Counted from the first letter of the stretch, positions 14,081-58,763 are shown. The stretch is DNA of 64,000 nt from Thermoanaerobaculia bacterium (GCA_963664405.1 OY761158.1:1568001-1632000); one strand, 5' to 3'. A program made the numbers and translations. The notes: a model not told the origin generated them from the sequence alone.

Positions 14081-14245
14081 CTAGACCAGCGTTTCCAAAG
14101 TTCGTGTACATAGGTCGAGGTCATTCTGTTCGCTGGCCAGGCGCGCCGACGCAGGCATATTGGGCAATATGTCGAGGAGGCGAAACGACGCCAGCGGACA
14201 GAAGGGGCCGAGATATGTGCGCGAACTTTGGAAACGCTGGTCTAG
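14081..14245. mobile_element. CTAG-bounded palindromic MITE-like element, copy 1 (165 bp)
   Basis: 24-bp perfect terminal inverted repeat CTAGACCAGCGTTTCCAAAGTTCG; near-identical copies at 41741, 46485 and 58599. Confidence 0.9.
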
Positions 14246-14361
14246 TATCGATCCGTGAACGTCGATCCTATCCTGGTGAGCGGTCTCGCTAGAGAGAGTA
14301 AGATGGCTCGGCCCGAAGACCGAGGTGAGTGCAAGGCTGACGATGAGAGGAGCTCGATTCG

Positions 14362-15054
14362 ATGAGTGAACGGCGACCGACCCCGGAGATGGTCGACGGG
14401 ATGCCCATCAGCTACCCCGCCGATTGGCGCACCATCCCGGAAGACAGGTGGCGCTCGATGCGCACGACGCCCGAGGCGTATGAGCGCATGCGAGAGCTTC
14501 GCATCGAGCGCGAGCGACGGACTCCGGCGGTGGGAGACCCGGCGCCCGATTTCGAGCTTCCGATGTTGGTCGAGGGCAGTCCGGATCGCAATCGGACAGT
14601 GCGTCTCTCCTCGCTGGTCGGCACACCCGTCGGGCTGGTCTTCGGCTCCTATACCTGACCGCCCTTCCGGGTCCAGTTGGGCCGGCTCAACGACATCTAC
14701 CGCAGCTACGGGGAAAAGATGAGCTTCTTCTGCGTGTACATCCAGGAGGCCCACCCCGAAGACGGTTGGCAGGTGGAGTGGAATCTCGATGAGGGCCTGA
14801 TCTACAACCAGCCCGTCACCCTCGAGGAACGAGGCGAGATCGCCAACACCTGTGTCTTGCGCCACTCCGTGGAGATGCCGGTTCTCCTCGATGAGATGGA
14901 CAACGAGGTCGACCGTCTTTACGCCGCGCTTCCCGAGCGGCTCTATGTCATCGATCGCGAAGGGCGGGTGGCGTGGAAGAGCATCATGGGCTCTGGCGGC
15001 TTCGACGCGGAGGCCTTCGCCGACGCGGTGAGGCTGGCCTACCGGCCAGGTTGA
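14362..15054 (+). CDS. Iodothyronine deiodinase-like selenoprotein (Sec at TGA 14656-14658)
   Basis: Track ORFs 14362-14658 and 14677-15054 are in one frame, separated only by TGA. Read-through gives APDFEL...LVFGSYT-U-PPFR, YIQEAHPEDGW and YAALPERLYVI, the conserved deiodinase motifs, with U at the catalytic Sec/Cys position. Confidence 0.9.
14667..14685 (+). promoter_or_regulatory. Putative bacterial SECIS hairpin
   Basis: CCGG(G)TCC-AGTT-GGGCCGG stem-loop starting 8 nt after the TGA, with a G in the apical loop. Confidence 0.55.
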
Positions 15055-15081
15055 GATCGGGGGATCGCGACTAGTCCCCGA

Positions 15082-15405
15082 TCACTTCCGACCCTTGCCT
15101 TTCTTCTTGTCGGCCTTGCGAAGCTCTTTCTCGATCTTCTTGAGGCTCTTCTTGGTCTGGACGTCCTCTGGAGGTCCCTTACCCTTGTTCTTGTCGGCCG
15201 TTCGCAGGGCCTTCTCGACCTCCTTGGCTGCCTTCTTCGCCTCTTTGTCTTTGGGCGGCCCCTTCGTCGCCGTCGCCGCTCCAAATCCTCCTGCGACCGA
15301 GTAGGTGACGGCCACGAGGCCGGAGGCCAGGCTCTCAACAGCCGCGAGGGGAGTGGCTGCAAGCACAGCGATAAGTAGTATCGGGAGCGAGCGGGCAGGA
15401 CTCAT
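15082..15405 (-). CDS. Small Lys-rich protein with N-terminal hydrophobic segment
   Basis: 107 aa; two internal repeats KGPP(K/E)D...KK..K..EK.LR.ADK.KGKG; SD GGAG upstream. Confidence 0.55.
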   Translation of the reverse strand: MSPARSLPILLIAVLAATPLAAVESLASGLVAVTYSVAGGFGAATATKGPPKDKEAKKAAKEVEKALRTADKNKGKGPPEDVQTKKSLKKIEKELRKADKKKGKGRK

Positions 15406-15512
15406 ATTCGGCTCCAGGAGTCTCTCAAAAAAATCGAAACTGGAGGGAATTCATTATAGCGGGCGACCCACCTCAGTGCCTCCACGTTCACGCCGACGGG
15501 CTCTTCGCCCGA

Positions 15513-16919
15513 CTATTCTGCGTTGGCAAGAGCCGTCTTGTACCCCGAGTAACGCGGCTGATCGATCGCGACCTGGTTGACCACGGTCGTCCTCAGATGG
15601 TCCGCCAGCCCGGGCTCGTCAAGCGGCATGGTTCCGTCGCGTAGGGCATGGACCAGTCGCCAGCGCAGCTCTTCGAGGTCGCCCGCGGCACCTAGGATCT
15701 TGCTCAAGCGTCCGCGCTCACCTTGGCCATGCGCCTCACCAACGGCGAGCTCGCGTAACACGATGTCGAGGGAGTTACCGGCCACGCGCGAGAGGAAGTT
15801 GATGCGCCCACTCGTCGCGTCCATCACCTCCCCGTGCAAGAAGTCGCGCACGCTCGAGACCAGCTCATCGGTGCGCGGCATGTCGAGGGTCGAGCTCAGC
15901 TCCAGTGGCTCGAGAAGCTCGAACGAGCCGGGGATGAGCAGGTTGACACAGTCGACCTGGCATTCCGAGGTGCGCCTGCCGATAGCCGGGCGCTCGACGC
16001 TGGGGTCGGGGCCGGTGCGGTAAATCTGAGCCATGCCGAGCGTTCCCACCGCCCACCAGAAAGAGCCGAAGACCTCCCAGAACTTGACTCGCTCGAGGTC
16101 GACCTCCTTTCCCGACACGCTCTCATAGCCGGCGAGGAGGTCCTCGTAGCTGCCGAAGCCGCCCACCGGGAGATCGCTGCGCCCGAAGCGCCAGGAGTTG
16201 GTGCAGATCCAGCCCAGGTCTCGCATCGGGTCGCCGATGTGGGCCGTCTCCCAGTCGAGGATCGCCACCACGCCTTGCGGACCGACCATGATGTTGCCGT
16301 TGCGGAAGTCGTTGTGGACAAGCGCCATCTCGGTCTCGGCCGGCAGATGATCTTCGAGCCATCTCGCCGCGTAGTCGATCATCGGTTGCGGCGTGCCGAA
16401 GGCCTTGTAGTTGTTCCAGGTCTGCTCGATGAACTCCTGCGGTGTCTGCCGGGTGAGGGTCGACTCGAGACCGTCAACATCGGGATCGATAGCGTGGATG
16501 CGGGCAAGGATCTCTCCGCATTGCCGGGCCAGAAGGGGGCGCGCTTTCGCCAGCTCCTCCGACCGAACGACACGAGCGCCCAGAGTCTCGCCGTCGAGCC
16601 ACTCCATCAGAAAGCCGTCACCCAGACCTTCCTCGGCATCGAGCAGATGCAGCACTCGCGGCTCCGGAACGCCCGCCTCGAGGGCCGCTCGCATCAACGC
16701 CGCCTCGCCTCGCAGGCCCGGCCGCCCGAGCGCATCGGGAGCCCCGCCTCCGGCCGCCCTACGCAGCGCCAGCCGGAGCTCGCCCTCGTCGGTGTCGACG
16801 ACGACACGGTAAGTCTCCTGACTGGCACCGCCCGAGAGGCGCTCGGCCTTGACCAGTTTGCGGAAGCCGCCGACGCACTCCGCCAGCACAGCTTCGAGCC
16901 GCGTGTCGAAATCACTCAC
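15513..16919 (-). CDS. Phosphotransferase family protein (APH/ACAD10-11-like) with C-terminal DUF6285-like domain
   Basis: LSGGASQET, LVHNDFRNGN, ILDWETAHIGDPMRDLGW, C-terminal AIDQPRY; start at GTG 16919. Confidence 0.85.
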   Translation of the reverse strand: MSDFDTRLEAVLAECVGGFRKLVKAERLSGGASQETYRVVVDTDEGELRLALRRAAGGGAPDALGRPGLRGEAALMRAALEAGVPEPRVLHLLDAEEGLGDGFLMEWLDGETLGARVVRSEELAKARPLLARQCGEILARIHAIDPDVDGLESTLTRQTPQEFIEQTWNNYKAFGTPQPMIDYAARWLEDHLPAETEMALVHNDFRNGNIMVGPQGVVAILDWETAHIGDPMRDLGWICTNSWRFGRSDLPVGGFGSYEDLLAGYESVSGKEVDLERVKFWEVFGSFWWAVGTLGMAQIYRTGPDPSVERPAIGRRTSECQVDCVNLLIPGSFELLEPLELSSTLDMPRTDELVSSVRDFLHGEVMDATSGRINFLSRVAGNSLDIVLRELAVGEAHGQGERGRLSKILGAAGDLEELRWRLVHALRDGTMPLDEPGLADHLRTTVVNQVAIDQPRYSGYKTALANAE

Positions 16920-20806: not shown

Positions 20807-20807
20807 C

Positions 20808-21105
20808 GTTGCTCCTCCGCCGAGCGGCGGCCTTCCCCTTATGGCAGGAAGGTCGGCTCCAGCGAGAAACTTTCGGGGCCTTCTCAGGGTTCACTCACGT
20901 TGCGGCCTGCACCTTTGCCCTCTGGACTTTCTCCAGATATTCCGGAGGCTTCAGCCGATCGGTCACCCGATTCGACTGCTCCGGCGGCTACCGGGGTGTA
21001 CCGACAACTCCCCGGGCGCGACTCTCACCCGCCGGCCTTCGAGACCCAGAGGTCTCCTATCTCTGTCTTTCGATCAGATCATCAGATTCCTCCTTCGTGT
21101 CGCAC
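20808..21105 (-). mobile_element. Group II intron 5' fragment (domain I only)
   Basis: Minus strand starts with the GTGCG 5' splice consensus (GTGCGACACGAAGG). It contains GGGTGAGAGTC..CCGG...CCGGTAGC, GCTGAAGCCTCCGG, GCAGGCCGCAACGTGAGTGAAC and GCCGACC...GGGGAAGGCC, segments I recognise from group II intron domain I. No RT ORF or domain V seen. Confidence 0.7.
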
Positions 21106-21356: not shown

Positions 21357-21367
21357 GTCGTTGGGGT

Positions 21368-22493
21368 TGTGGGGGGCGAAAACCCAACTGTCCTAGGCCG
21401 CGAGTCGTCGACGGTATCGATGGTGTAATCCACCGACCAGCGGGAACGCGATTACGTCGCCCATCTCGGGCGGCTCGACGCACGGGGCACGGGACAGTCG
21501 TTCTCCAGCGACTGGTGAGTGCGCGTATCATGGTAGTAGGCGACGTAGCTGCGGAGAACTCGGCGGTGATGCTGCTCATTGAGGACCACAAGACATGGTC
21601 GAGGCACTCACGACGCATGGAGCCAATCAGCCGTTCGCAGAACGGATTCTGCCAGGGTGAGTGGGGCGCAGTCTTGACCTCTTCGATACCGATCGACTCG
21701 ATGCATCTGGCGAACTCCCCCGAGGAACTTCGTGTCGTTGCCACGGAGTAAGTAACGAGGAGCGGTGTCGTAGGGAAACGCCTCGAGGAGTTGCTGAGCG
21801 GTCCAGGCGCTGGACGGCGAGTCGGTTACGTTTGAGTGGATGATTCTGCGGCGGTCGTGCGACATGATGATCAGGACGTATAGGACTCGAAACGTCGCCG
21901 TCGGCACGGTAAAGAAATCGATGGCTACCAGGTCCTCGACGTGATTGTCGAGGAAGGCTCGCCAGGTTTGCGACGGTGGCGTTTGCCGCTTTGGCTTGTA
22001 CGTGGCGACGGTGGAATCGCTAACGCTGATGCCGAGCTTGGCGAGTTCAGACTGAATTCGCCGCTTGCCCCAAGTCGGATTGACGTTCCAAATGTCGCGG
22101 ATCAGCTTGCGCTGCTCGGGAGCGATCCTCGGTCGGCCTCCCTTGGGTCGGCTTTTCCGGCGCCAGTAGTACCTGAATCCAGCGCGATGCCCGTTGATGA
22201 TGGTGGCAGGTTGGACCAGTTGGAGCCCATCGCGCCAGTTGGGCCACACATGCTCCAGGCAGATCCAAAAGAGTCGGTCATGGTCTTCGAGTTGCGGCTT
22301 GGTCGACCGGCGATGGAGTACTGCGAGTTGGTGGCGAAGCGCGAGGTTCTCTAGCGCCAGATCGCACCTCGGCCGGAGACTCGACACGGCACTGCGAACG
22401 ATGGTTCGGAGTAGTTCCCACATAGGATGCCGACTCTACCGACCGGTACGGAAGGTGAGTGACTTCGGGGCGGACGGGTATTCGCCCCCCACA
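21368..22493 (-). mobile_element. IS481-like insertion sequence (1126 bp)
   Basis: Terminal IRs TGTGGGGGGCGAAAACCC (21368) and GGGTATTCGCCCCCCACA (22493), 17/18 match, with TGT..ACA ends. No flanking direct repeat. Confidence 0.8.
21393..22423 (-). pseudogene. Integrase-core (DDE/rve) transposase, frameshifted
   Basis: LENLALRHQL, NPTWG..RI..EL.KLG, AIDFFTVPT; then in other frames SPWQNPFCERLIGSMRRECLDH and GGLHHRYRRRLAA*. Confidence 0.85.
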
Positions 22494-22587
22494 AGCGGCT
22501 CCGCCTCAGCTGGAGCGGTGGACCGGCGCCGCTCAGTCGTGTGTTCTCGATGCGTGCGGAGTAGCCGCCGGCGGGTGCGCTTCGCCG

Positions 22588-27680: not shown

Positions 27681-27792
27681 CGCGAGAAGCCCGCCTGTGG
27701 TGCAGAGAGCCTGGGGCGGATGGTCTTCTAGGGCGACCGTGGACGACACCACCACTTCGAAACGTACGCAAAGCGCGCTATCCTGATTGCCA

Positions 27793-29856
27793 ATGAACCT
27801 CGCGCGGAGGCCGGCTGTGCCGGTCATCACGATCGCTGCGACACTCCTTCTCGCTGCCGTCAGCGCCGGCGAGAATGTCGACTGGCCGCGCTTCGGTAAC
27901 GATGGCGGCAACGGGAAATACTCCACCCTCGACCAGATCGACGCCGACAACTTCGACCAGGTCGAGGTGGTCTGGACCTGGGAATCGGTCGACGCTCAAC
28001 TCGAGGACCGGGTTGAAGGCGCGCAGAAAGGCGGCGTAGCGCGCCCCGATCCGGAAGACGGGTTCGCCCTCGCCAACGCCGCGGAGAACGGACTGCCCAC
28101 GCAGGTTCGTCCGGGACCTTTCAAAGCCATTCCGGTGGTGATCGACGGGCGAATGTACGTGAGCACCGCTCTCGGACAGGTTGCGGCGATCGACGCGGCC
28201 TCCGGCGAGCCGCTGTGGAGCTACGATCCCCAGAGCTGGGAGGCCGGGCGACCGGCGAATATGGGCTTTCAGCATCGAGGCGTGGCCTACTGGCAGCGGG
28301 GCGACAAGAAGCGCGTGTTGATGCCGACGCACGACCGCCGCCTGCTTTCGCTCGACGCCATGACCGGCAAGCCGGACCCCGACTTCGGCAGATACGGCGC
28401 GGTGGCGATGACCAAGGATCTCGGTCGCGACATCACCGAGTCGAGGACGACCCACAGCTCGCCGCCCTCGCTGTGTCGTGACCGGGTGATCGTCGGCTCG
28501 ATCGTGTCCGATATTCCAAGCTACAAAGAAGCGCCCCCGGGGCATGTGCGCGCCTACCATGTCGAGAGTGGCGAGTTGGCGTGGGTCTTCCACACCATCC
28601 CCCAGCCGGGTGAAGAAGGCCATGAGACCTGGGAGGAGGGTTCGTGGAAGTACACAGGCGCCACCAACGTGTGGTCCCTGATCTCGGTGGATGAAGAGCT
28701 CGGCCTCGCCTATCTTCCGATCTCGACGCCGACCAACGACCTCTACGGCGGCCACCGCCTGGGAGATAACCTGTTCGCCGAGAGTCTGGTAGCCGTCGAT
28801 TGCGAGACCGGAGAGAAGCGCTGGCACTTCCAGATGGTGCACCACGGCCTGTGGGACTACGATCTGCCGACGGCGCCGACCCGGATCGATGTGAAGGTCG
28901 GGGACAAGCTGGTCAAGGCGGTGGCGCAGCCGACCAAGCAGGCCTTCCTCTTTGTTTTCGACGCCGAGACCGGCGAGCCGCTGTGGCCAATCGAAGAGAA
29001 GCCGGTGCAGACAGGGACGGTGCCGGGAGATCGCGCCTCACCGACCCAGCCCTTCCCCACCAAGCCGGCGGCCTACGACTACCAGGGGATCTCCGAAGAC
29101 GATCTCATCGACTTTTTGCCGGAGCTTCGCCGCGAGGCACTGGAGATCGCGGCCGACTACGAGCTGGTGCCGCTCTACACGCCCCCGCGTCTGGAGGGTG
29201 AGGGCAAACCGACGATTCAGCTCCCTGCCGATGGCGGGGGTACCAACTGGACCGGCGCCGCCGTCGATCCCGAGAGCGGCCTGATCTATGTGCCGTCCCT
29301 CACTCGACCGGTTACCGTCTCGCTGACCACGCCGGACCCCAATCGCTCGAATATGCGCTACACGCCGAGCCGCTGGTACGACGGCGTCCAAGGTCCCCGT
29401 GGCTTGCCGCTGGTGAAGCCGCCCTACGGCCGGATCACCGCCATCGATCTCGCCACCGGCGAGCATGCCTGGGTGGCGGCGCACGGGGAGGGGCCGCGCA
29501 ACCACCCCGCGCTCCGGGAGCTCGGTCTCGGTCGACTCGGTGCGACGAATCACACTGCGGCACCGCTGGTCACCAAGACCCTCCTCTTCGTCACCCTGCG
29601 GGCTGAGAACACGACCGGCGGCAGCCGGCGGGAACCCGATCGACCGGCCGAGATCAGTGTCTACGACAAGAAGAGCGGCGCCTACCTCGGTGGCATCGAG
29701 CTCCCGGACTCGCCCAAGTCGAACCTCATCACCTACGAAGTGGATGGCCGGCAGTATCTCGCCGTCAGCGTCGGTGGGGGGCGCTCGACGATCGGCGGCG
29801 GCGGAACCCCGGCCCGGGTCGTCGCCCTGGCACTCCGTTCGCCGGGAGCCCCGTGA
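27793..29856 (+). CDS. PQQ-dependent dehydrogenase (quinoprotein glucose dehydrogenase-like), paralogue A
   Basis: KYSTLDQID..N, RGVAYW, NVWS...DEELG..YLP, WHFQMVHHGLWDYD, SPTQPFPTKP, KPPYGRITAIDL. Confidence 0.9.
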   Translation: MNLARRPAVPVITIAATLLLAAVSAGENVDWPRFGNDGGNGKYSTLDQIDADNFDQVEVVWTWESVDAQLEDRVEGAQKGGVARPDPEDGFALANAAENGLPTQVRPGPFKAIPVVIDGRMYVSTALGQVAAIDAASGEPLWSYDPQSWEAGRPANMGFQHRGVAYWQRGDKKRVLMPTHDRRLLSLDAMTGKPDPDFGRYGAVAMTKDLGRDITESRTTHSSPPSLCRDRVIVGSIVSDIPSYKEAPPGHVRAYHVESGELAWVFHTIPQPGEEGHETWEEGSWKYTGATNVWSLISVDEELGLAYLPISTPTNDLYGGHRLGDNLFAESLVAVDCETGEKRWHFQMVHHGLWDYDLPTAPTRIDVKVGDKLVKAVAQPTKQAFLFVFDAETGEPLWPIEEKPVQTGTVPGDRASPTQPFPTKPAAYDYQGISEDDLIDFLPELRREALEIAADYELVPLYTPPRLEGEGKPTIQLPADGGGTNWTGAAVDPESGLIYVPSLTRPVTVSLTTPDPNRSNMRYTPSRWYDGVQGPRGLPLVKPPYGRITAIDLATGEHAWVAAHGEGPRNHPALRELGLGRLGATNHTAAPLVTKTLLFVTLRAENTTGGSRREPDRPAEISVYDKKSGAYLGGIELPDSPKSNLITYEVDGRQYLAVSVGGGRSTIGGGGTPARVVALALRSPGAP

Positions 29857-29872
29857 TATAAGCGTCGCTACC

Positions 29873-31837
29873 GTGCCCCCCCTCAAGACCCTGCTATTCG
29901 CCTCCTGCGCCGCATCGCTGCTCCTCGCCGCCGTGGCGACGCCTGCCGATACCGACTGGCCCCACTTCGGCAACGACGCCGGCAATACGAAGTACTCACC
30001 GCTCGACCAGATCGACGCCGACAACTTCGACCGCGTCGAGGTGGTCTGGACCTGGGATTCGGTCGACGGTCAGCTCAAAGACCTGCCAAGCGCCGTACGC
30101 CCAGGGCCTTTCAGACCGATCCCGGTGGTGATCGACGGACGTATGTACGTGAGCACCGCGCTCGGCCAGGTAGCAGCGATCGACGCCACCAGCGGCGAGC
30201 AGCTGTGGAGCTACGACCCGCAGAGCTGGGAGGCGGGGCGGCCGGCGAATATGGGCTTTCAGCATCGCGGAGTGGCGGTCTGGCACAAGGGCGAGAGACA
30301 ACGAGTGATGATGGCGACCCACGACCGGCGCCTGCTCTCGCTCGACGCCATGACCGGCAAGCCCGATCCGGCCTTCGGCAAGTACGGCGCGGTGGAGATG
30401 ACCAAGGATCTGGGGCGCAAGATCCTCGAGTCGCGCACTACACACAGCTCGCCGCCGGCGATCTGTCGCGACACCGTGATCGTCGGCTCGATCGTTGCCG
30501 ATATGGCCACGCATCAAGAGGCACCGCCCGGTTTCGTGCGCGCCTATGATGCCGAGAGCGGCGCCCTGGCGTGGGTCTTTCACACCATCCCCCAGCAGGG
30601 AGAGGAGGGCACAGAGACCTGGGAGAACGAGTCCTGGCGCTACAGTGGCAACACCAATGTGTGGTCGATGATCACCGTCGACGAGGAGCTCGGCCTCGCC
30701 TATCTTCCGATCGGCACGCCGTCGAGTGACCTCTATGGCGGTCATCGCCTCGGCGACAACCTCTACGCCGAGAGCCTGGTGGCGGTCGACTGCGAGACCG
30801 GCGAGAAGCGCTGGCACTTCCAGATCGTGCACCACGGCCTCTGGGACTATGACCTGCCACCGCCGCCGAACAGGATCGACCTCGTGGTGGGCGGCAAGCT
30901 CCGCAAGGTGGTGGCGCAAGCCAGCAAGCAGGCCTTCCTCTTCGTCCTCGATGCCATGACGGGAGAGCCGCTGTGGCCGATCGAAGAGCGTCCCGTGCCG
31001 CCGAGCCAGGTGCCGGGGGATCGTGCCTCGCCGACCCAGCCTTTCCCCACCAAGCCCGCCGCCTACGATCGCCAGGGCATCAGCACCGATGATCTGATCG
31101 ACTTCACGGCCCAGCTTCGGAAAGAGGCCCTCGAGATCGCGAGTGCGTACGAGCTGGCGCCACTGTACACACCGCCTCGCGTCACGGGCGAAGGTAAGCC
31201 GGTGATCCAACTACCCAGTGAGTGGGGCGGCACCAACTGGACCGGCACCGCAGTCGACCCCGAAACCGGCATGATCTACGTGCCTTCCCAGACCAGGCCG
31301 GTATCCGTCTCGCTCACCCTGCCCGACCCCAATCGCTCGAATCTACGCTACGTGCCGGACGGCTGGTACGAGCGAGTCGAGGGTCCGCGTGGTCTGCCGC
31401 TGGTCAAACCGCCCTACGGACGCGTCACCGCGATCGATCTCGCGACCGGCGAGCACGTCTGGGTAGCGGCCCACGGTGAGGGGCCGCGCAACCATCCGAC
31501 GATCAAGCACTTGGGCCTGGATCGGCTGGGCTCCCCGAACCACGTAGCAGCGCCGCTGGTGACCAAGACTCTGTTGTTCGTCACCCATCGTGCCGAGAAC
31601 ACCACCGGCGCCGATCCCACCACCACGGATCGACCGGCCGAGATCAGCGTTTACGACAAGAAGACCGGGGCCTACCTCGGCGGCATCGAGCTTCCCGATT
31701 CGCCCAATTCGAACCTCATCACCTACGAAGTCGACGGTCGTCAGTATCTCGCAGTGAGCGTCGGCGGCGGAAGCGACCCGGGCGAGAGCGACGACACTCC
31801 GACGGGCGTCGTTGCGCTCGCGCTCGCCCCACTCTAG
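29873..31837 (+). CDS. PQQ-dependent dehydrogenase, paralogue B (tandem duplicate of A)
   Basis: Same motifs and long near-identical stretches with 27793-29856; start set at GTG 29873, before the signal peptide. Confidence 0.9.
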   Translation: MPPLKTLLFASCAASLLLAAVATPADTDWPHFGNDAGNTKYSPLDQIDADNFDRVEVVWTWDSVDGQLKDLPSAVRPGPFRPIPVVIDGRMYVSTALGQVAAIDATSGEQLWSYDPQSWEAGRPANMGFQHRGVAVWHKGERQRVMMATHDRRLLSLDAMTGKPDPAFGKYGAVEMTKDLGRKILESRTTHSSPPAICRDTVIVGSIVADMATHQEAPPGFVRAYDAESGALAWVFHTIPQQGEEGTETWENESWRYSGNTNVWSMITVDEELGLAYLPIGTPSSDLYGGHRLGDNLYAESLVAVDCETGEKRWHFQIVHHGLWDYDLPPPPNRIDLVVGGKLRKVVAQASKQAFLFVLDAMTGEPLWPIEERPVPPSQVPGDRASPTQPFPTKPAAYDRQGISTDDLIDFTAQLRKEALEIASAYELAPLYTPPRVTGEGKPVIQLPSEWGGTNWTGTAVDPETGMIYVPSQTRPVSVSLTLPDPNRSNLRYVPDGWYERVEGPRGLPLVKPPYGRVTAIDLATGEHVWVAAHGEGPRNHPTIKHLGLDRLGSPNHVAAPLVTKTLLFVTHRAENTTGADPTTTDRPAEISVYDKKTGAYLGGIELPDSPNSNLITYEVDGRQYLAVSVGGGSDPGESDDTPTGVVALALAPL

Positions 31838-41906: not shown

Positions 41907-42109
41907 AGCTCGAAGGGCTCACCCCGAGTCGTTCCGCGAGCTCGAAGCGCCTCGTAGGTACCCTGTCCCGCGGCACGAGACGCAGCGAGCACCTGCTCCA
42001 AGGATTCGCTTTGCTGGCGAAGGTCGCGTAGACGGGCCACGTCGACTTCGTCAGTGGGCACATCGCTGTCGAGGTCGAGGGGCTCAGAGGCTACGGTGAA
42101 TCTCTTCAT
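41903..42109 (-). CDS. Small protein coupled to the upstream nucleotidyltransferase
   Basis: 68 aa, overlaps the 3' end of 42084-42614; ends GEPFEL*. Confidence 0.55.
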   Translation of the reverse strand: MKRFTVASEPLDLDSDVPTDEVDVARLRDLRQQSESLEQVLAASRAAGQGTYEALRARGTTRGEPFEL

Positions 42110-42614
42110 AGTCTTTGTCTAGTCCATGCCGGTGGAAGTATTCTCGCACCTCGTCACGATCCACGCTCTCGATACGAAGCAGCACACGAATGTCGGCGAG
42201 ATCCTGCAACCGCCGCGTCCGGTCGTTCCTATAGGCCGTGACCTTCATCGCTATGAGGTGCTCTGGCTTCGGCACCAAGGCTTTGCAGCCCGGAAAGACC
42301 AGACGTTCGCGGGCGTCGGCAAAGAGCTTGGCTTCGGTCTCGCCGCGAACGTAGATCAAGTCTACGCGGCCCCAGGCCGGGTCCGCGTGGAGGTGGTTCG
42401 AATAACCGGAGGAGCGATGCAGTGTCTCGTAGCCGAGAGACTCGAGATAGGCGACCACGGCATCCTGTTGGTCGAAGGGGACGATCAAGTCGAGATCGAA
42501 GGTCGTACGACCGCCCCCGTAGCTGTTCAATCCCCATCCACCGGCGACCGCACACCGGGAGCTCTGATGGTTGAGAAAGCTAGCGACAGCCTCGTGGACG
42601 CGAGTGTATTCCAT
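42084..42614 (-). CDS. Nucleotidyltransferase-fold protein (AbiEii/DUF6036-like)
   Basis: AVAGGWGL..YG..RTT.DLDL, RVDLI, PEHLIAMK..A......R.QDLADI. Confidence 0.8.
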   Translation of the reverse strand: MEYTRVHEAVASFLNHQSSRCAVAGGWGLNSYGGGRTTFDLDLIVPFDQQDAVVAYLESLGYETLHRSSGYSNHLHADPAWGRVDLIYVRGETEAKLFADARERLVFPGCKALVPKPEHLIAMKVTAYRNDRTRRLQDLADIRVLLRIESVDRDEVREYFHRHGLDKDYEEIHRSL

Positions 42615-46460: not shown

Positions 46461-48161
46461 ATGGCAATGCTCCGCGTCCGCGCCCTAGACCAGCGTTTCC
46501 AAAGTTCGTGCTGCATAGCTCGAGGTCATTCTGTTCGCTGGCCAGGCGCGCCGACGCAGGCATATTGGGCAATATGTCGAGGAGGCGAAACGCCGCCAGC
46601 GGGCAGAAGGGGCCGAGATATGTGCGCGAACTTTGGAAGCGCTGGTCTAGTACTCGTTCTGGGGTTGATCTCGGCGCTCGGCTGTCAACCTGCGGAACAA
46701 CCCACGGAGACGGGCGCCCCTCCCGCGGCGGCGGTGGCGGCCGCGCCGAATATCATCGTCATCCTCGCCGACGATCTCGGCTATGGCGACATCGGAGCCT
46801 ACGGTTCCCAGATCCCGACCCCCAACATCGACCAGCTGGCGCGGGACGGCGTTCGGCTGACCTCCGGCCATGTTTCGGCAGCGGTATGCAGCCCGACACG
46901 CGCCGGCCTCCACACCGGCCGCTACCAGAATCGCTTCGGTTGGGAGTACAACCCCTTCTACTTCAGCGGCGCCGACAGAGGTCCCGATGCCGACCTCGGT
47001 CTTCCTCTCGACCAGGCCACACTCGCCAACCTCTTTCAGGATGCCGGCTACACCACCGGCCTGATCGGCAAGTGGCATCTCGGTGTGGCTGAGCAGTACC
47101 ACCCGATGAACCGTGGCTTCGACGAGTTTTACGGAATCCTGGGAGGCGGTACCAGCTACATCGACTCCCGCCTTCCCGGCACTCACGAGTGGCCCGAGGA
47201 GGGTGCCCCGACCACCCGCAGCGGAGACTCGCGCGTCATCCGCGACGGCTTCGAGGTGATCGAGGTCGAGGAGTACCTGACCGACGTCTTCGCCGAGAAG
47301 GCGGTCGACTTCATCGATCGCCATGCGGACGAGCGCTTCCTACTGATGCTGACGCCGAATACCCCACACACGCCCCTTCAGGCGACGGACGAGTACATGG
47401 AGCGGGTGCAGCACATCGAGGGAGAGGGCGCACGCCTCTACGCCGCGATGGTGGTCTCACTCGACGATTACGTCGGTGATGTCGTCGCCGCCCTACGCAA
47501 GCACGACCTTGAGCGCGACACGATCGTCGTCTTTCTCTCCGACAACGGCTGCATCAACTACATGAGCGAGCCGATCTGCACCAACGCCCCCCTGGCTGGC
47601 AACAAGCGCTTCCACCTCGAAGGGGGCCATCGCGTTCCTTTCATCGTCAAATGGCCGGCAGGCCTTCCTCAGGGCGAGGTCTACGATGAGCACGCGATCG
47701 CTCTCGACCTCTACGCGACCTTCGCAGCTGCCAGCGGTCTCGAAGCCAGCTCTCCCGACAGCGTGAACCTGCTTCCCCATCTACGTGGTGAGGCCTCCGA
47801 ACCGCCACACGAGTTCCTCTACTGGCGCGCGGCACCCAACATCGCGATCCTGTGGGGGAAGTGGAAGATGTGGAAGGTCAACAACACCGATCTCGAGATC
47901 CCTCCGGGGCCGCCGGGCCAACAAGTACCGCTGCAGGAATGGCCACCCCACTCTTCGCCCCTAGGCCAGGCCACGGTTCTCTATGACCTTTCCACCGACA
48001 TCGGCGAGACCACGAATGTCGCCGACCAGCATCCCGAGATCGTCGAGCGTCTGGAGAGCGAGCTCGAAGCGTGGGAGGAGACGCTCTCCGAGCCACTCTG
48101 GGTCAACCGCCGCTCGACCTTGCATGAACTGCACGGTCAGACTGTGCACCTCTTCTTCTAA
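46461..48161 (+). CDS. Lipoprotein Cys-type sulfatase with a 54-aa element-derived insertion in its signal peptide
   Basis: PNIIVILADDLGYGD, CSPTRAGL.TGRY, GKWHLG, SDNG; in-frame element at 46485-46650. Confidence 0.9.
   Translation: MAMLRVRALDQRFQSSCCIARGHSVRWPGAPTQAYWAICRGGETPPAGRRGRDMCANFGSAGLVLVLGLISALGCQPAEQPTETGAPPAAAVAAAPNIIVILADDLGYGDIGAYGSQIPTPNIDQLARDGVRLTSGHVSAAVCSPTRAGLHTGRYQNRFGWEYNPFYFSGADRGPDADLGLPLDQATLANLFQDAGYTTGLIGKWHLGVAEQYHPMNRGFDEFYGILGGGTSYIDSRLPGTHEWPEEGAPTTRSGDSRVIRDGFEVIEVEEYLTDVFAEKAVDFIDRHADERFLLMLTPNTPHTPLQATDEYMERVQHIEGEGARLYAAMVVSLDDYVGDVVAALRKHDLERDTIVVFLSDNGCINYMSEPICTNAPLAGNKRFHLEGGHRVPFIVKWPAGLPQGEVYDEHAIALDLYATFAAASGLEASSPDSVNLLPHLRGEASEPPHEFLYWRAAPNIAILWGKWKMWKVNNTDLEIPPGPPGQQVPLQEWPPHSSPLGQATVLYDLSTDIGETTNVADQHPEIVERLESELEAWEETLSEPLWVNRRSTLHELHGQTVHLFF
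46485..46650. mobile_element. CTAG-bounded palindromic MITE-like element, copy 3 (166 bp), intragenic and in frame
   Basis: Removing 162 bp (element minus one CTAG) restores MAMLRVRALVLVLGLISALGCQP, matching the paralogue MAMRSQLRRALVLCLGLLSIIGCQS. Confidence 0.92.
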
Positions 48162-48165
48162 GGGG

Positions 48166-49707
48166 ATGGCGATGAGATCTCAGTTGCGCCGAGCTCTTGT
48201 GCTCTGTCTGGGACTACTCTCGATCATCGGCTGCCAGTCTCCCCAGGAGCCGATAGAAACCGGCGCGCCCCCGGCGCTGGGCGCGCCGACCGCCCCCAAT
48301 ATCATCGTCATCGTGGCCGACGACCTCGGCTACGGTGACATCGGCGTCTTCGGATCGGAGACCATCCCGACCCCCCACATCGACGCGCTGGCACGCGACG
48401 GCGTGCAGTTGACCGCGGGCTACGTTTCCGGAGCGGTGTGCAGTCCCACTCGGGCCGGGCTCCACACCGGGCGCTACCAGAACCGCTTCGGCTACGAGTA
48501 CAACCCCACCGCCAACTATGTGAGGGGGGCCGACGCGGAGCTCGGTCTGCCCGAGGATCAGACGACGATCGCCAATCTCTTTCAAGACGCCGGTTACACC
48601 ACCGGTCTCATCGGCAAGTGGCATCTCGGCATCCGCGAGCCCTACCATCCGCTCAACCGCGGCTTCGACGAGTTCTACGGGATTCGGGGCGGCGCCACGA
48701 GCTATATCGACTCACGGCTTCCGGGGGTGCATTCGTTCCCGGCGGAGGGCGCCCCGACCGAGCGTACCGGGTATGAGCGCGCCATCATCGACGGCCGCGA
48801 AGAGGTGGACGTCCCCGAGTACCTGACCGACGTCTTCGCCGAGAAGGCGGTGGACTTCATCGACCGCCACGCGGACGAGCGCTTTCTCTTGATGCTGACG
48901 CCGAACACTCCCCACACGCCGATCCAGGCGACCGACGAGTACGTCGAGCGAGTCAAGCACATCGAAGAAGAGGGCGCGCGCATCTATGCCGCGATGGTCG
49001 TCTCTCTCGACGACTATGTCGGCGACGTCGTCGCCGCCCTGCGCCGGCACGATCTCGAGCGCGACACACTCATCGTCTTTCACTCCGACAACGGCTGCAT
49101 CAACTACATTGGCGAAGTGATCTGCACCAATGCTCCGCTGTCTGGCGGCAAGCGCTACCACCTCGAAGGAGGCATCCGTGTGCCTTTCATCATCAAGTGG
49201 CCCGCGGGTCTGCCGCAGGGCGCGGTCTACGAAGAACCGGTGATCGCTCTCGACACCTACTCGACCGCGGCCGCCGCCGCTGGCCTCGACGCCAGTACTC
49301 CCGACAGCGTCAACCTCCTTCCCTATCTCCGTGGCGAGACCTCCGAAGCACCGCACGAGTTCCTCTACTGGCGCTCCGCTCCCAACCACGCGATCCGTTG
49401 GGGGAAGTGGAAGATGTGGAAGGTCAACAACACCGATCTGGCCTTCGGCGATCCTCCGCCTCCCGGTCGGTTACTGCCCGAAGTGGACTACCCGATCGAG
49501 TCCCCCCATGGGCAGACGACGGTTCTCTACGACCTCTCGGCCGATGTCAGCGAGCAGCAGAATCTCGCCGACCAGCACCCCGAGATCGTCGAGCGCCTGG
49601 AGGCCGAGCTCGAAGCCTGGGCCTCCGAGCTCGCCGAGCCGATGTGGACCAGCCGCCGCGCGACTCTCGACGACCTCCACGGCCAGACCGTTCAGCTCTT
49701 CTTCTAG
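48166..49707 (+). CDS. Lipoprotein Cys-type sulfatase (tandem paralogue)
   Basis: Same motifs; highly similar to 46461-48161 over its length; lipobox-like IIGC. Confidence 0.92.
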   Translation: MAMRSQLRRALVLCLGLLSIIGCQSPQEPIETGAPPALGAPTAPNIIVIVADDLGYGDIGVFGSETIPTPHIDALARDGVQLTAGYVSGAVCSPTRAGLHTGRYQNRFGYEYNPTANYVRGADAELGLPEDQTTIANLFQDAGYTTGLIGKWHLGIREPYHPLNRGFDEFYGIRGGATSYIDSRLPGVHSFPAEGAPTERTGYERAIIDGREEVDVPEYLTDVFAEKAVDFIDRHADERFLLMLTPNTPHTPIQATDEYVERVKHIEEEGARIYAAMVVSLDDYVGDVVAALRRHDLERDTLIVFHSDNGCINYIGEVICTNAPLSGGKRYHLEGGIRVPFIIKWPAGLPQGAVYEEPVIALDTYSTAAAAAGLDASTPDSVNLLPYLRGETSEAPHEFLYWRSAPNHAIRWGKWKMWKVNNTDLAFGDPPPPGRLLPEVDYPIESPHGQTTVLYDLSADVSEQQNLADQHPEIVERLEAELEAWASELAEPMWTSRRATLDDLHGQTVQLFF

Positions 49708-49897
49708 CTTTCGTATAGTTTTCGAAAATGATCGCTATCATTTCCGAAATCTAGTTGCTGTTTGGCGCCGAGGACGGCGCACTCGTGCGTTGCTTCCTAT
49801 TCGCTCCGGAAAACGGCGCGGGCCGATTCGGGGGTCTTAGGGCCGGACGCCCACGTCCCTCGGAGCGAATAGGAAACAGCGCCTGAAAGCTAACTAG
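49704..49897. repeat. Two abutting CTAG-bounded palindromic segments (49704-49754 and 49751-49897) containing REP-like copy 3
   Basis: First segment: GAAAATGAT-CGCT-ATCATTTTC hairpin. Second: perfect 15-bp IR TTCCTATTCGCTCCG/CGGAGCGAATAGGAA, CTAGTT...AACTAG ends, and GGCGCCGAGGACGGCGC at 49764-49780. Confidence 0.65.
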
Positions 49898-52506: not shown

Positions 52507-52686
52507 CTAGTGTCCTGTATCAGTAGTTCGTCACACAACTCGCTGGCCCTTTTGGGCGCTGCCGTCGTTGGCTGGGCGCCCCCGCTCTCCTCGCAATATT
52601 GCCCAATATACCTTCGTCGTAGCGCCTTGGCAGCACCCAAAATGACTGCGCGATTTATGCAACGAACCACTGATACAGGACACTAG
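52507..52686 (-). mobile_element. Related CTAG-bounded palindromic element, subfamily 2 (180 bp)
   Basis: TIR CTAGTGTCCTGTATCAGT / ACTGATACAGGACACTAG; minus-strand core CGACGAAGGTATATTGGGCAATATTGCGAGGAG matches the core of copies 1-3. Confidence 0.8.
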
Positions 52687-53796: not shown

Positions 53797-55245
53797 TCAG
53801 CGCGGCCCGAAGAGATTTCTTATCGGCAGCCCGGGGTCCTTGGCGGGGTCGTAGTCGGGATTGCGCGTCGGCAGCTCGAGATCGACTTCTTCGAAGTAGG
53901 AGTCGAGTCGCTGCGAGAGCTTCTTCGCGATCTCGGGGCGCCAACTGCTCAGATCGGTCGACTCCCGGAGGTCGAGCTCGAGATCGTAGAGGTACTCTCG
54001 ACCCGATTCGAGCTCGCGGATGAGCTTGTGGTTGCCGCTACGAATGGCCGCCTGCGGCGCCACGTGCTTCATGTTGCGATAGGCGCCGTAGTACCAGACC
54101 AGCTCGTCCGTGCCGCGCTCGACTGTCGAGGCACGACCGGCTAGGACTCCCGCCAGGCTCCCTCCGTCTACGTCGCTCGGAACATCGTCGCCTTCGCCGA
54201 TCCACTCGGCGATCGTCGGCAGAAAGTCATAGCCGATCGCCGGAACATGACTCTGCGATCCGGCTTCGATTCCCGGACCCCGAACGATCAGCGGCACCCG
54301 AATGCCGCCCTCCCACACATGAGTCTTGCCCATGAACAACGGAGTATTGCTGGTCACCGGGGTATCCGATTCACCACCGTTGTCGGAGGTGAAGATCACA
54401 TAGGTATTCTCCGAGAGTCCGAGCTCGTCCAGCTTCGCGAGGATCTTGCCGACACTCTCGTCCATCTCCTCCGTCATCGCGGCATAGACCTCGTTCGAGT
54501 GGTTGTTGCCGGTGGGATAAGTCTTGTAGCGCTCCACGTTCTTGGGGAAGGCCCGGAGAGGAGTGTGCACTGCGTAGTAGGAGACCTGGAGATAGAAGGG
54601 TCGTCCACTCGGCCCGTACTTGTCGAGGAAGGCGAGCGAGTCTTTGGTGATCTCCCCGGAGCGCTTGGGGTCGGGTGGTCCCTGCCCACCCGGCGTGTTG
54701 GTGGTGGTGCCGTTGTGCTCGTCGTAGCCATGGCGCTCGGGCGGGGTCGCGCCCATATGCCATTTGCCGAAGTGACCGGCGACCGTCTTCGAATCGTGCC
54801 GCTTCAGATACTCGGCGATGGTGAGCTCGCTTTCCGGCAGATCGTCGATCGGAAAAGGCACGAGCAGAGGTTTGTTGAAATACATCATGTCGTGGAAGGG
54901 CTGGATCAGCGCCTTGCCGTTCTCGTCAGGCACCACGTCGATGATGTCGGTGGCGCCAAGACGCGCCGCGGTCTTCCCGGTCTGGATCGCCATCCGGGTC
55001 GGCGAGCAGTTCGGCGCCGGGGAGTAGGCGTTGGAGAAGCGCATACCCTGGCTCGCCATCCGCTCCAAGCTCGGAGTGCGGTAAAGATCGCTCTTTGAGC
55101 CCGCCACACGGTCGTCCATCTGCACCGACGAGCCGGTCCAACCCATGTCGTCGGCGAGCAAGAGAACGATGTTCGGCGTGTCCGCCGCGCTGGCGGTCAG
55201 CGGTAGGGCTATGGCGAGTAGGAGAGTAGCGACTTCAAGTCTCAT
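53797..55245 (-). CDS. Secreted Cys-type sulfatase
   Basis: PNIVLLLADDMGW, CSPTR, GKWH, YYAVHTP, TSDNGG, EGGIRVP. Confidence 0.92.
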   Translation of the reverse strand: MRLEVATLLLAIALPLTASAADTPNIVLLLADDMGWTGSSVQMDDRVAGSKSDLYRTPSLERMASQGMRFSNAYSPAPNCSPTRMAIQTGKTAARLGATDIIDVVPDENGKALIQPFHDMMYFNKPLLVPFPIDDLPESELTIAEYLKRHDSKTVAGHFGKWHMGATPPERHGYDEHNGTTTNTPGGQGPPDPKRSGEITKDSLAFLDKYGPSGRPFYLQVSYYAVHTPLRAFPKNVERYKTYPTGNNHSNEVYAAMTEEMDESVGKILAKLDELGLSENTYVIFTSDNGGESDTPVTSNTPLFMGKTHVWEGGIRVPLIVRGPGIEAGSQSHVPAIGYDFLPTIAEWIGEGDDVPSDVDGGSLAGVLAGRASTVERGTDELVWYYGAYRNMKHVAPQAAIRSGNHKLIRELESGREYLYDLELDLRESTDLSSWRPEIAKKLSQRLDSYFEEVDLELPTRNPDYDPAKDPGLPIRNLFGPR

Positions 55246-57224: not shown

Positions 57225-57227
57225 CTG

Positions 57228-57563: not shown

Positions 57564-57806
57564 TCAGCGACCGCCGGCCGCGATCTGCGGCAGAGCGAAG
57601 GCGACGAGCTCCGCTTTCTCGCTCACTCCGCCGGCGGCAACGACGATGTACTGGCGCCCCTCGTGGAGATAGGTGATTGGCGAGCTGTGCAGACTGCGCT
57701 CGACCTCGACCTGGGCCAGCAGCTTGCCGCTGCCCCTCTCGTAAGCCTGGAGATAAGCGCCTCCCGGCCCTTCTCTGATCCGCTTGCCGAGCTCGTCGAG
57801 CTTGGC
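57564..57806 (-). pseudogene. C-terminal remnant of a PQQ-dehydrogenase paralogue
   Basis: AKLDELGKRIREGPGGAYLQAYERGSGKLLAQVEVERSLHSSPITYLHEGRQYIVVAAGGVSEKAELVAFALP closely matches the ends of 34039-36033 and 60665-61471. Confidence 0.85.
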
Positions 57807-57916
57807 GGGCCCGCCGAAGAGGAGCGCGGCTGTCAACTCTTTCGGGTGCTCGGCCGCGTCTCGAAAATGTTCGGGTGGCACCCCGCCGGCCGGAGGCCGG
57901 CGGGGGTGTTGCCGGC

Positions 57917-57940
57917 TGATATATACCATGATATATATCA
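57917..57940. promoter_or_regulatory. vapBC operator palindrome
   Basis: TGATATATA-CCATGA-TATATATCA immediately upstream of the vapB start. Confidence 0.65.
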
Positions 57941-57943
57941 AGC

Positions 57944-58213
57944 GTGAAACCAACGAAAGAACGTCCCCAGAGACGCGAGTACCGAGCGAAGGTCTTCCGT
58001 AACGGGCGCAGCCAGGCGATACGCCTCCCCAAGGAGCTCCGATTCGATGAGCAAGAGAAGGAGGTTCGTGTGTGGCGGGAGCACGGACGCCTGGTAGTCG
58101 AATCGATCGACGAGTGGCCGGAGGACTTCTGGCGACTCTTCGGAAGCGTTCCTGATCTCGAGCTCCCCGAGCGAACGCCCCTCGCCGAGGCACGCGACCG
58201 CTTCAATCGGTGA
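57944..58213 (+). CDS. vapB: AbrB/MazE-fold antitoxin VapB
   Basis: AKVFRNGRSQAIRLPKELRF. Confidence 0.92.
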   Translation: MKPTKERPQRREYRAKVFRNGRSQAIRLPKELRFDEQEKEVRVWREHGRLVVESIDEWPEDFWRLFGSVPDLELPERTPLAEARDRFNR

Positions 58214-58602
58214 GGTACCTCCTCGACACCGATACGGTGAGCTTCATCCTGCGCGGAGAGGGGAGGGTCGAAGACCACTTTCTTCGCCTCCGCCCGTCGG
58301 ACATCTGCACCAGTCCGATCGTCGTAGGAGAGATTGAGCTCGGCCTCGAACGGAGAAAGAACCCGAGGCTTCGACTGCTCGCTGAACGTCTCTTCGAGAT
58401 CTTGTCCGTCGCGCCTTACGACAGGGAGGCTGGCCAGCACTACGGCCGATTGGCAGCTTCCCTCCTGGCAACAGGAACCCCGATCGGGGTCGAGGACACG
58501 ATGGTCGCGGCCCACGCCCTGTCGTTGGGCCTGACTCTGGTCACTCACAACACCAGGCACTTTGAGCGAGTACCGGGGCTCAGGGTCGAGGACTGGTACT
58601 AG
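58210..58602 (+). CDS. vapC: VapC/PIN-domain toxin
   Basis: YLLDTDTVS, GEIELG, GTPIG..DTMVAAHA, LVTHNTRHF.RVPGL.VEDW. Confidence 0.92.
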   Translation: MRYLLDTDTVSFILRGEGRVEDHFLRLRPSDICTSPIVVGEIELGLERRKNPRLRLLAERLFEILSVAPYDREAGQHYGRLAASLLATGTPIGVEDTMVAAHALSLGLTLVTHNTRHFERVPGLRVEDWY

Positions 58603-58763
58603 ACCAGCGTTTCCGAAGTTCGTGTACAGAGCTCGAGGTCATTCTGTTCGCTGGCAAGGCGCGCCGACGCAGGCATAGCAGGGACTATGTCGAGGAGGCG
58701 CAACGCCGCCAGCGGGCAGAAGGGGCCGAGAACTGTGCGCGAACTTCGGAAACGCTGGTCTAG
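58599..58763. mobile_element. CTAG-bounded palindromic MITE-like element, copy 4 (165 bp, divergent)
   Basis: The left CTAG contains the vapC stop; carries paired compensatory substitutions relative to copies 1-3. Confidence 0.9.

Follow-up and report, generated by a model that had tools for sequence, protein, structure and literature searches.

A family of palindromic repeats in a 64,000-nucleotide stretch of DNA from a Thermoanaerobaculia bacterium (GCA_963664405.1 OY761158.1:1568001-1632000; hereafter the window) is very probably a CTAG-inserting family of non-autonomous DNA transposons (MITEs) of an Acidobacteriota lineage, moved in trans by an enzyme encoded outside the window. Each copy is a near-complete palindrome between CTAG flanks, and the enzyme acting in trans would insert such copies at CTAG. 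The initial annotation had proposed a palindromic family that targets CTAG, is mobile and has no transposase of its own in the window, and this is borne out by nine dispersed copies and by an empty-site allele at the protein level; mobility of the family is supported at the level of sequence comparison.

Copies and their insertion sites

Nine full copies were found in total, five in the window and four in one contig of an Acidobacteriota MAG. They have in common a core of about 110 nt, which is enclosed by one of three different outer stems, and a fourth outer-stem type (type D) was found in metagenome proteins. The copies in the window and the genes that are needed to follow their insertion are:

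14081..14245, + strand: copy w1, type A outer stem, 165 nt, 179.9 bits
41741..41906, + strand: copy w2, type A, 166 nt, 182.3 bits
46485..46650, + strand: copy w3, type A, 166 nt, 181.2 bits
52507..52686, - strand: copy w5, type B outer stem, 180 nt, 136.9 bits, divergent
58599..58763, + strand: copy w4, type A, 165 nt, 179.4 bits, with three paired changes
46461..48161, + strand: sulfatase gene hosting w3
48166..49707, + strand: tandem sulfatase paralog, 75.6% amino-acid identity, signal peptide uninterrupted
57944-58213, + strand: vapB-like gene
58210-58602, + strand: vapC (PIN domain)

The four type A copies (starting at 14081, 41741, 46485 and 58599) had already been described as lying on the + strand, being 165-166 nt long and carrying CTAG at both ends, all of which was confirmed. 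Their common orientation holds for these four but not for the family, given that the divergent fifth copy, w5, whose core contains an extra block of 13 nt, lies in the opposite orientation. For type A, the four window copies are oriented alike, while the three in the MAG are +, - and +. The copies measure 165-180 nt overall, or about 161-176 nt between the CTAG flanks, and their six-frame translations yield short peptides only. The flanks of the nine copies are unrelated beyond CTAG, which is present at 17 of the 18 ends and on both sides of eight copies; the exception is m3 of the MAG, whose left flank is GTAG and whose right flank is CTAG. CTAG is itself scarce here (65 sites versus approximately 141 expected). 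Tandem clustering of CTAG-bounded palindromes was observed at L003 1997-2260.

The family is rare. A 16-nt end pattern allowing up to three mismatches gave 10 matches versus 0.47 expected, eight of which are element ends and two of which are three-mismatch matches elsewhere. The covariance-model search that had been suggested, run with filters off over 76 kb, returned no copy beyond the nine. In a collection of genomes from 185,579 species, the exact 22-nt end pattern matched only three loci, all MITE-sized, and the sole genome matched was the Acidobacteriota MAG. The family gave five matches among 1.84 billion cluster representatives and five more in a set of 5.8 billion.

The tetranucleotide CTAG includes TAG when read on one strand and CTA when read on the other, and insertions are therefore found in three settings: at stop codons of the TAG type, in the short spacers of operons and at CTA-G codon junctions within genes. 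The target of w4 is the TAG stop of the vapB-like/vapC operon, which is held in the left CTAG of this copy. Copy w1 sits between two ORFs on the - strand, to which it is consequently antisense, and its right CTAG contains the stop codon of ORF 14242-14865 (-). Copy w2 starts 8 nt downstream of a CoA-transferase gene (40602-41732, +), counted from its stop, with convergent genes on either side. Copy w5 is flanked on one side by the stop codon of an HpcH-type aldolase gene and on the other by the ribosome-binding site of a 2-hydroxyacid dehydrogenase gene, and it is antisense to the two genes. The CTAG ends had been said to supply the stop codons of vapC and of ORF 41903-42109 (-); both genes indeed end in the TAG/CTA of a flanking CTAG, but this TAG belongs to the target and is not borne by the element.

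The clearest insertion within a gene is that of w3, which adds exactly 54 stop-free codons, in frame, to the region encoding the lipoprotein signal peptide of the sulfatase. The N-terminus of this protein reads MAMLRVRA, followed by the 54 inserted codons and then LVLVLGLISALGC, whereas the ortholog P0011 (89% identity over 504 residues) reads MLRVRT-LVLVPGLISALGC and lacks the insert. The tandem paralog also lacks the 54 codons and serves as an internal proxy for the empty site, so that the search for empty sites that had been advised led to an insert-free allele at the protein level. In the right arm of w3, an in-frame ATG at 46620 follows GAAGGGG and might allow translation to start anew, with a signal peptide that is still usable. 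In-frame insertions in otherwise intact genes are represented by w3, m3, P0006 (FAD monooxygenase, with the insert between its two domains), P0008 (a membrane protein) and P0009 (with one stretch of a PIN_3 domain matched on each side of the insert); a type D copy likewise interrupts a sulfatase in frame (P0005). The commonest form within genes amounts to exactly 54 codons free of stops, whichever its orientation, and an insertion of this length can be tolerable for the host genes.

Fold, covariation and the unit under selection

Each window copy is predicted to form one long hairpin (-109.1 kcal/mol with z -14.5 for w1, and -120.1 kcal/mol with z -13.0 for w4), in agreement with the near-whole-length folding first noticed for the four type A copies. 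The arms pair almost from end to end, with 86-89% complementarity between the inverted repeats formed by the terminal 37 nt, and 95.1% of the cells are paired in the alignment of the nine copies. The three paired changes reported for w4 are all present (columns 17/164, A-U to G-C; 32/149, U-A to G-C; 81/88, U-A to G-C). Among the nine DNA copies, which are a small sample, double changes occur in 28 of 68 pairs versus 6.5 in shuffles (0/500 reach 28) and 1-8 in slid controls, with the caveat that the shuffle controls overstate the significance because the copies are related. For w5 and m2, the outer stem has 12 and 13 pairs, respectively, altered on both sides and still paired, and no pair altered on both sides has become unpaired. 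The compensatory changes are real and reach past the terminal repeats, given that the inner 36 pairs considered on their own contain nine double changes (2.1 in shuffles, with 0/500 reaching this number, and 0-2 in slid controls).

The pairing is not symmetric between the strands. Pair positions with G-U number 16 versus three with A-C (binomial p 0.004), an excess that is weak when minority (recent) events alone are counted (10 versus 3). The G-U pair at columns 42/140 persists in 9/9 copies and that at 76/93 in 8/9. For all nine copies, the plus strand is predicted to fold 18-28 kcal/mol better than the minus strand, and DNA parameters give the same preference (-61.2 versus -47.9). This asymmetry suggests that the single-stranded fold matters, although it does not distinguish RNA from single-stranded DNA.

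Conservation is also distributed unevenly along the copies. Between types, the termini are identical at 27 of 59 positions, while the core is kept at 73-85 of 98-99. The motif CTAG-N6-GTNTC is common to all types, a G directly follows TA in all three outer-stem types, and a purine-rich CGAGGAG in a loop is invariant. In classical MITE families it is the termini that constitute the conserved part. The divergence of the termini with retention of the core is therefore the opposite of what such families display, and speaks against a MITE reading. Selection on the hairpin of one strand would explain the compensated pair changes, the persistence of G-U and the conservation of the core above that of the termini, and this hairpin, as RNA or as single-stranded DNA, is probably itself under selection.

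A purely DNA-level origin is rather unlikely. The palindrome would then derive from a fold-back event, with ends that co-evolve with a dimeric transposase and possibly with correction from arm to arm, and the single-stranded fold would be unselected. The distribution of the double changes fits this proposal, given that 19 of the 28 fall in the outer 30 bp or so, where a transposase would bind, and the motif common to all types fits as well; whole-length hairpin potential is, moreover, described as common in MITEs in passages of PMC10969869. Nonetheless, inner pairs also co-vary, the 16 versus 3 excess of G-U over A-C is unexpected for recognition of double-stranded DNA, and mismatches between the arms are kept as G-U across the subfamilies (the 42/140 and 76/93 pairs above), which argues against arm correction.

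It is unlikely that the transcribed hairpin has an RNA function at the level of the host, as a cis element for mRNA processing or stability (for example an RNase III substrate, as with Correia elements) or as a small RNA gene, with mobility being secondary. Covariation reaching into the core, the excess of G-U on one strand, the stronger conservation of the core and the invariant loop motif would all be accommodated, and the descriptions of bcr1, Correia and ERIC elements in PMC3184786 and PMC10969869 offer precedents for RNA-level effects and compensatory changes. However, orientation relative to the flanking genes shows no bias among the nine copies (five sense, three antisense, one ambiguous), copies lie within coding regions in both orientations, the family is rare, the flanks are unrelated, and no conserved promoter or intrinsic terminator is present. 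In the search for such signals, w2 had no promoter-like or terminator-like site and w5 had one weak promoter-like match. Of the features of an independent structured RNA gene, covariation was thus found, while a promoter and terminator of its own, or a constant orientation, were not. The structured mobile RNA or 3'-UTR element put forward in the initial annotation is not borne out by these observations. The Rfam comparison that it had advised, a whole-window scan at gathering score, matched no described family to the repeats and returned only a group II intron elsewhere; a permissive scan of w1 gave MIR839 alone, at 21.7 bits against a cut-off of 200.

A more radical reading, which we consider doubtful, is that selection acts on the hairpin formed by one specific strand, together with its conserved core of about 110 nt, rather than on the terminal repeats, making the family a mobile single-stranded module. 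This module could be hairpin DNA placed next to CTAG by an HUH-like or other enzyme, or a transcribed RNA that spreads by virtue of a useful fold. If true, the outer stem would be free to vary as long as it remains paired, and the family would be set apart from classical MITEs defined by their TIRs.

Candidate mobilizing enzymes

For the enzyme that would move the copies in trans, three types fit the flanks. The most likely of the three, although still a tentative assignment, is a DDE transposase of the IS630/Tc1 type, which would duplicate the TA within CTAG. IS630 reportedly prefers the TA within CTAG, according to the title of work by Tenzen and Ohtsubo from 1991 that is cited in PMC2170065. 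ISY100, of the IS630/Tc1-mariner family, is described in PMC2170065 as duplicating TA. TA duplication within CTAG is consistent with the flanks of all nine copies when these are written as C-TA-[G...C]-TA-G, including the GTAG/CTAG flanks of m3, which favour it but are a single case. An IS630-type transposase or a parent with these ends was found neither among the 51 window ORFs nor by the 22-nt pattern search across 185,579 species. Indeed, the absence of a cognate transposase from the window, already noted before, was confirmed by a Pfam scan of the 51 ORFs, and the proposed search for a transposase gene flanked by the element ends returned only MITE-sized loci with the exact 22-nt pattern, which diverged ends would escape. 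The sole insertion sequence of the window (rve type, 21367-22494) was rejected as parent, since its ends are unrelated and it lacks CTAG flanks.

The attribution first made, to an IS5-group MITE with a 4-bp CTAG (YTAR) target duplication, is improbable as it stands. The CTAG flanks fit it, with CTAG on both sides in 8/9 copies, and MITEPsy1, which derives from ISPsy2, is described in PMC3189936 as duplicating CTAG or YTAA; it is, however, only one of three fitting readings, beside IS630-type TA duplication and HUH-type insertion next to CTAG. The unequal flanks of m3 and the G that follows TA in all three outer-stem types, as if it were the element's own, count against it, as does the failure to find an IS5-like parent among the window ORFs or with the 22-nt pattern. 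Because the target is itself palindromic, the flanks do not show whether 2 or 4 bp of it are duplicated.

Least probable of the three is an HUH tyrosine transposase (IS200/IS605, RAYT or TIRYT kind), which would recognize a one-strand hairpin and insert it 3' of CTAG with no target duplication. In this mode of insertion, CTAG would also form the 3' end of the element itself. The strand-specific fold that tolerates G-T, also with DNA parameters, would suit such an enzyme, the same CTAG-both-sides flanks would result, the GTAG of m3 would be a variant target, and the tandem cluster at L003 1997-2260 would fit. Yet no Y1/HUH gene was found among the window ORFs in Pfam scans, and the orientation of the type A copies is uniform in the window but not in the MAG. 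Known elements of this sort carry short subterminal hairpins, unlike the 165-nt whole-length palindrome seen here. Acidobacteria do have their own group of TIR-associated tyrosine transposases, according to passages of PMC3733652. Assignment to REP/BIME or IS200/IS605-type single-strand elements is not supported, given that hairpins of about 20-40 nt would be expected versus 165 nt and that the Pfam scans returned no Y1 family.

Relation to known families and significance

Several known repeats resemble the family described here in part. Rickettsia palindromic elements (RPE) are described in PMC3184786 as in-frame inserts within protein-coding genes; they are palindromic repeats of about 100-170 bp that add a peptide without breaking the frame. 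The 54-codon inserts in sulfatase, PIN, FAD-monooxygenase and membrane-protein genes are alike in behaviour, as judged by description, but RPE belong to another phylum, whereas this family is found in GC-rich Acidobacteriota DNA with strict CTAG flanks. The Correia/NEMIS elements of Neisseria and ERIC are bacterial MITEs of comparable length, with extended inverted repeats and TA-containing targets, which fold as long RNA hairpins if co-transcribed; effects of RNase III and RNase E are described in PMC10969869. They are defined by their terminal repeats, unlike the present family, in which the core is conserved and the outer stems differ by subfamily. MITEPsy1 (IS5 family, Pseudomonas syringae) is likewise a small MITE, inserted at CTAG or YTAA and duplicating 4 nt, but, as presented in the passages of PMC3189936 that describe it, it has 100 nt with 18-nt repeats, is not a whole-length hairpin, and its printed end sequence is unrelated. 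The mobile bcr1 repeat, which has about 155 bp and occurs in the Bacillus cereus group, is described in PMC3184786 as having an RNA structure maintained by compensatory changes. It differs in being cruciform-like, with two stem-loops and 5-bp direct repeats, and in having no CTAG target. Overall, the copies are best regarded as a new family of MITEs, with likenesses to both RPE and Correia elements.

A well-defined mobile-element family is hereby added to the Acidobacteriota, whose mobile DNA is, to our knowledge, little described. It provides a clean case of palindromic insertions that keep the reading frame of real genes, namely those for a sulfatase (in its signal peptide), a PIN toxin and a monooxygenase, a behaviour best known, according to the account in PMC3184786, from Rickettsia palindromic elements. 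It also carries a warning for genome annotation, given that these elements make false long ORFs and that stop codons may look element-derived. The conservation of core and pairing while the termini diverge, with only one strand folding well, is a puzzle; if the hairpin serves as a substrate of single-stranded transposition or acts as a functional RNA, this family would lend itself to testing that role in a compact system.

Copies, ends and distribution of the element

The four copies recognized in the initial annotation agree in position, strand and length (165-166 nt) with those found here, and a repeat search has added a fifth one (w5), which lies in the opposite orientation. These five copies, together with the only insertion sequence discussed below, are the following.

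Elements and insertion sequence of the window
14081-14245, plus strand: copy w1, 165-166 nt, CTAG at both ends
41741-41906, plus strand: copy w2, 165-166 nt, CTAG at both ends
46485-46650, plus strand: copy w3, 165-166 nt, CTAG at both ends
58599-58763, plus strand: copy w4, 165-166 nt, CTAG at both ends
52507-52686, opposite orientation: copy w5, 180 nt, CTAG-bounded
21367-22494, minus strand: insertion sequence with 19-bp inverted ends, HTH_32 and rve_3 transposase split by a frameshift

In the alignment of w1-w4 with their flanks, every copy reads CTAG at either end, and the flanking sequences cannot be aligned. Searching with a 16-nt end pattern and allowing up to three mismatches returned 10 matches where 0.47 were expected; element ends make up eight of these. 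The outer stem of w5 is quite different in sequence from that of w1-w4, and its core is related. Among species-representative genomes, the exact 22-nt end pattern retrieved three loci (L001-L003), all within about 170 kb on one contig of a single Acidobacteriota MAG and containing four elements, and did not retrieve a full-length parent element. The outer stem of the element at L001:2220-2385 is of a third kind, and the element of L003 combines the outer stem of w1-w4 (type A) with a longer core as in w5. A covariance model of the nine copies, applied without filters to the 76 kb made up of the window and the MAG loci, detected no copies beyond these nine. Their scores are 137-182 bits in one orientation but 63-84 bits in the reverse one; the matches ranking next are other palindromes and reach about 23 bits at most. 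The translated element gave five hits against 1.84 billion protein cluster representatives, two of them with a fourth type of outer stem (type D), and a second search with the frame of the other strand, restricted to longer proteins, gave five hits among 23 scored candidates. Plasmid and phage collections contained nothing similar to the element by blastn. Given the few protein hits and the single MAG among the genomes, the family is real yet rare and narrowly distributed.

Other repeats are found in the same regions. A second, unrelated CTAG-bounded family of about 147 nt (window 49751-49897; L003 2205-2260; L002 375-441) is about 90% identical between window and MAG and forms a less perfect fold (-77 kcal/mol, z -5.3). 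Its L003 copy stands in tandem with the type A element and with a perfect palindrome of 29 nt, neighboring units having CTAGs in common. Very short CTAG-bounded palindromes or hairpins (L003 2172-2208, window 33385-33483) are clustered, with adjacent units sharing a CTAG; the same insertion mechanism may have left them as footprints or minimal derivatives. Several paralogous PQQ-dependent dehydrogenase genes (27787-31837, 34039-36033, 60509-61471) are the source of most long repeats in the window, both direct and inverted.

Fold, covariation and strand asymmetry

Folding bears out that each copy forms one long hairpin (-109.1 kcal/mol, z -14.5, for w1 and -120.1 kcal/mol, z -13.0, for w4). The three paired changes reported earlier for w4 are present at columns 17/164, 32/149 and 81/88 of the nine-copy alignment, and at 17/164 one MAG copy has the G-U intermediate. 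The consensus hairpin of this alignment has 68 pairs, with 95.1% of the cells paired. Of the 68 pairs, 28 have double changes that leave them paired, compared with 6.5 in shuffles (none of 500 reaching the observed value) and 1-8 in slid controls, which retain the relatedness of the sequences and agree with the shuffles; with only nine related sequences, the shuffle figures are not probabilities. When the outer 34 columns on each side are masked, nine of the inner 36 pairs still have double changes, above shuffles (2.1; 0 of 500) and slid controls (0-2), so that the internal covariation that had been proposed holds.

Comparison of the stem types shows identity at 27 of 59 positions in the outer 30 bp and at 73-85 of 98-99 in the core. 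The outer stems of w5 and of the MAG copy m2 have 12 and 13 pairs, respectively, changed on both sides and still paired, and in neither is a pair changed on both sides and broken.

The two strands are not equivalent. The plus strand has G-U at 16 pair positions and A-C, which on one strand corresponds to G-U on the other, at 3 (binomial p 0.004); minority events alone give a weak 10 to 3. The plus-strand fold is better by 18-28 kcal/mol in every copy, and the advantage is also seen with DNA parameters. Several G-U pairs are conserved across all stem types, at 42/140 in all nine copies and at 76/93 in eight of nine, which stands against simple correction of one arm by the other and argues for pairing in a single-stranded form, either RNA or single-stranded DNA.

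Target site, insertion into genes and mobilization

The initial annotation held that the CTAG ends supply stop codons to neighboring genes. The coincidence with the TAG stop of vapC is confirmed, and is also seen for ORF 14242-14865 and, in L003, for a 508-codon ORF. Some other elements are located after a stop codon and ahead of the following ribosome-binding site. CTAG is strongly depleted in the window, which has 65 sites; dinucleotide-preserving shuffles predict 141, and all 100 of them exceed 65. Given this coincidence and this scarcity, it is the stop codons that supply targets to the element, and not the reverse. Further toxin-antitoxin-like genes lie near the elements, namely a nucleotidyltransferase/HepT pair (59504-60345, plus strand) and an AbiEii-like nucleotidyltransferase fragment (42084-42614, minus strand).

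Copy w3 lies inside the lipoprotein signal-peptide coding region of the sulfatase gene 46461-48161, and in the encoded protein MAMLRVRA is separated from LVLVLGLISALGC by the product of 54 stop-free codons. The signal peptide of the tandem paralog (75.6% identical) is uninterrupted. A search with the N-terminal 200 residues retrieved a protein (P0011) that is 89% identical over 504 residues, starts with MLRVRT-LVLVPGLISALGC and lacks exactly the 54 codons, making it an empty-site allele at the protein level. Copy m3 of the MAG is likewise in the signal-peptide region of a sulfatase, and since this sulfatase is only 45% identical to that of the window, the two insertions are probably independent, and the idea of a single ancient orthologous insertion was dropped. 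In the 166-nt form, the frame beginning with CTA has no stop on either strand. Protein hits reveal three more genes with the 54-codon insert in the opposite orientation, coding for a PIN-domain protein whose Pfam domain is matched as two stretches flanking the insert, an FAD monooxygenase where it falls between the two domains, and a membrane protein; in P0005, another sulfatase, the interrupting copy is of type D. The right arm of w3 contains GAAGGGG and, after it, an ATG that shares the reading frame of the sulfatase and might restore a usable signal peptide.

An element of the family thus occurs in three different sulfatase genes (window, MAG and P0005), two of the three bearing it in the signal-peptide region. 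The window has several sulfatase genes (46461-49707, the tandem pair; 31880-33349; 53797-55245). The m3-bearing sulfatase (L002 1-2177, minus strand) is split into three reading frames after about 253 codons, reflecting either a pseudogene or assembly indel errors.

As stated previously, no cognate transposase is present in the window: the Pfam scan of 51 ORFs found a single transposase, the frameshifted rve-type gene of the insertion sequence 21367-22494. Three mechanisms would yield identical flanks. The evidence leans towards an IS630-type transposase that duplicates the TA inside CTAG, because the left flank of m3 is GTAG and its right flank CTAG, a single variant only, and because every stem type begins with G directly after TA. 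IS630 reportedly prefers TA in CTAG, going by the title of a 1991 paper by Tenzen and Ohtsubo. Duplication of TA is described for ISY100 in a passage of PMC2170065. An IS5-type 4-bp duplication at CTAG, as in the account of MITEPsy1 excerpted from PMC3189936, would give the same flanks, as would an HUH single-strand transposase inserting next to a tetranucleotide, one group of which is specific to Acidobacteria according to part of PMC3733652. All stem types share CTAG-N6-GTNTC, which may be a protein-contact motif. A 6-bp NCTAGN duplication, the habit of IS481, was rejected because in each copy the bases beyond CTAG on the left are not those on the right, and the insertion sequence 21367-22494 was rejected as parent, its 19-bp ends being unrelated to the element and CTAG flanks being absent.

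Possible RNA function and nature of the family

The element matches no Rfam family, a comparison already pointed to in the initial annotation: at gathering scores the whole window gave only a group II intron piece, and a permissive search with w1 only a chance hit to a microRNA model. Scanning two copies for promoters and terminators produced no consistent signal, and relative to neighboring genes five copies are sense, three antisense and one ambiguous. Given the absent Rfam match, the unrelated flanks, the inconsistent promoter and terminator signals and the mixed orientation, an independent RNA gene is unlikely. From their position, several copies must be co-transcribed within host mRNAs. 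The intron piece (20895-21034, minus strand), adjoined by the insertion sequence 21367-22494, matches the model RF02003 (group II intron domains D1-D4) in full length, at 96.1 bits. As neither a reverse-transcriptase ORF nor a match to D5-D6 was found close by, it looks like a fragment or an ORF-less intron.

By its size, its palindromy, the logic of its targets and its in-frame insertions, the family resembles the Rickettsia palindromic elements, Correia/ERIC and bcr1, known bacterial MITEs treated in sections of PMC3184786 and PMC10969869. A description of the family was not found in the literature, and the supplementary catalogue of PMC11602168, a large survey of MITEs, may list it. The family is a newly found bacterial MITE family of known type, with the unusual traits of a conserved core, termini that diverge but are always compensated, and a fold on one strand. 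These same traits keep alive a reading that we consider rather improbable, in which the selected unit would be the one-strand hairpin with its core rather than the terminal repeats, that is, a mobile single-stranded module.
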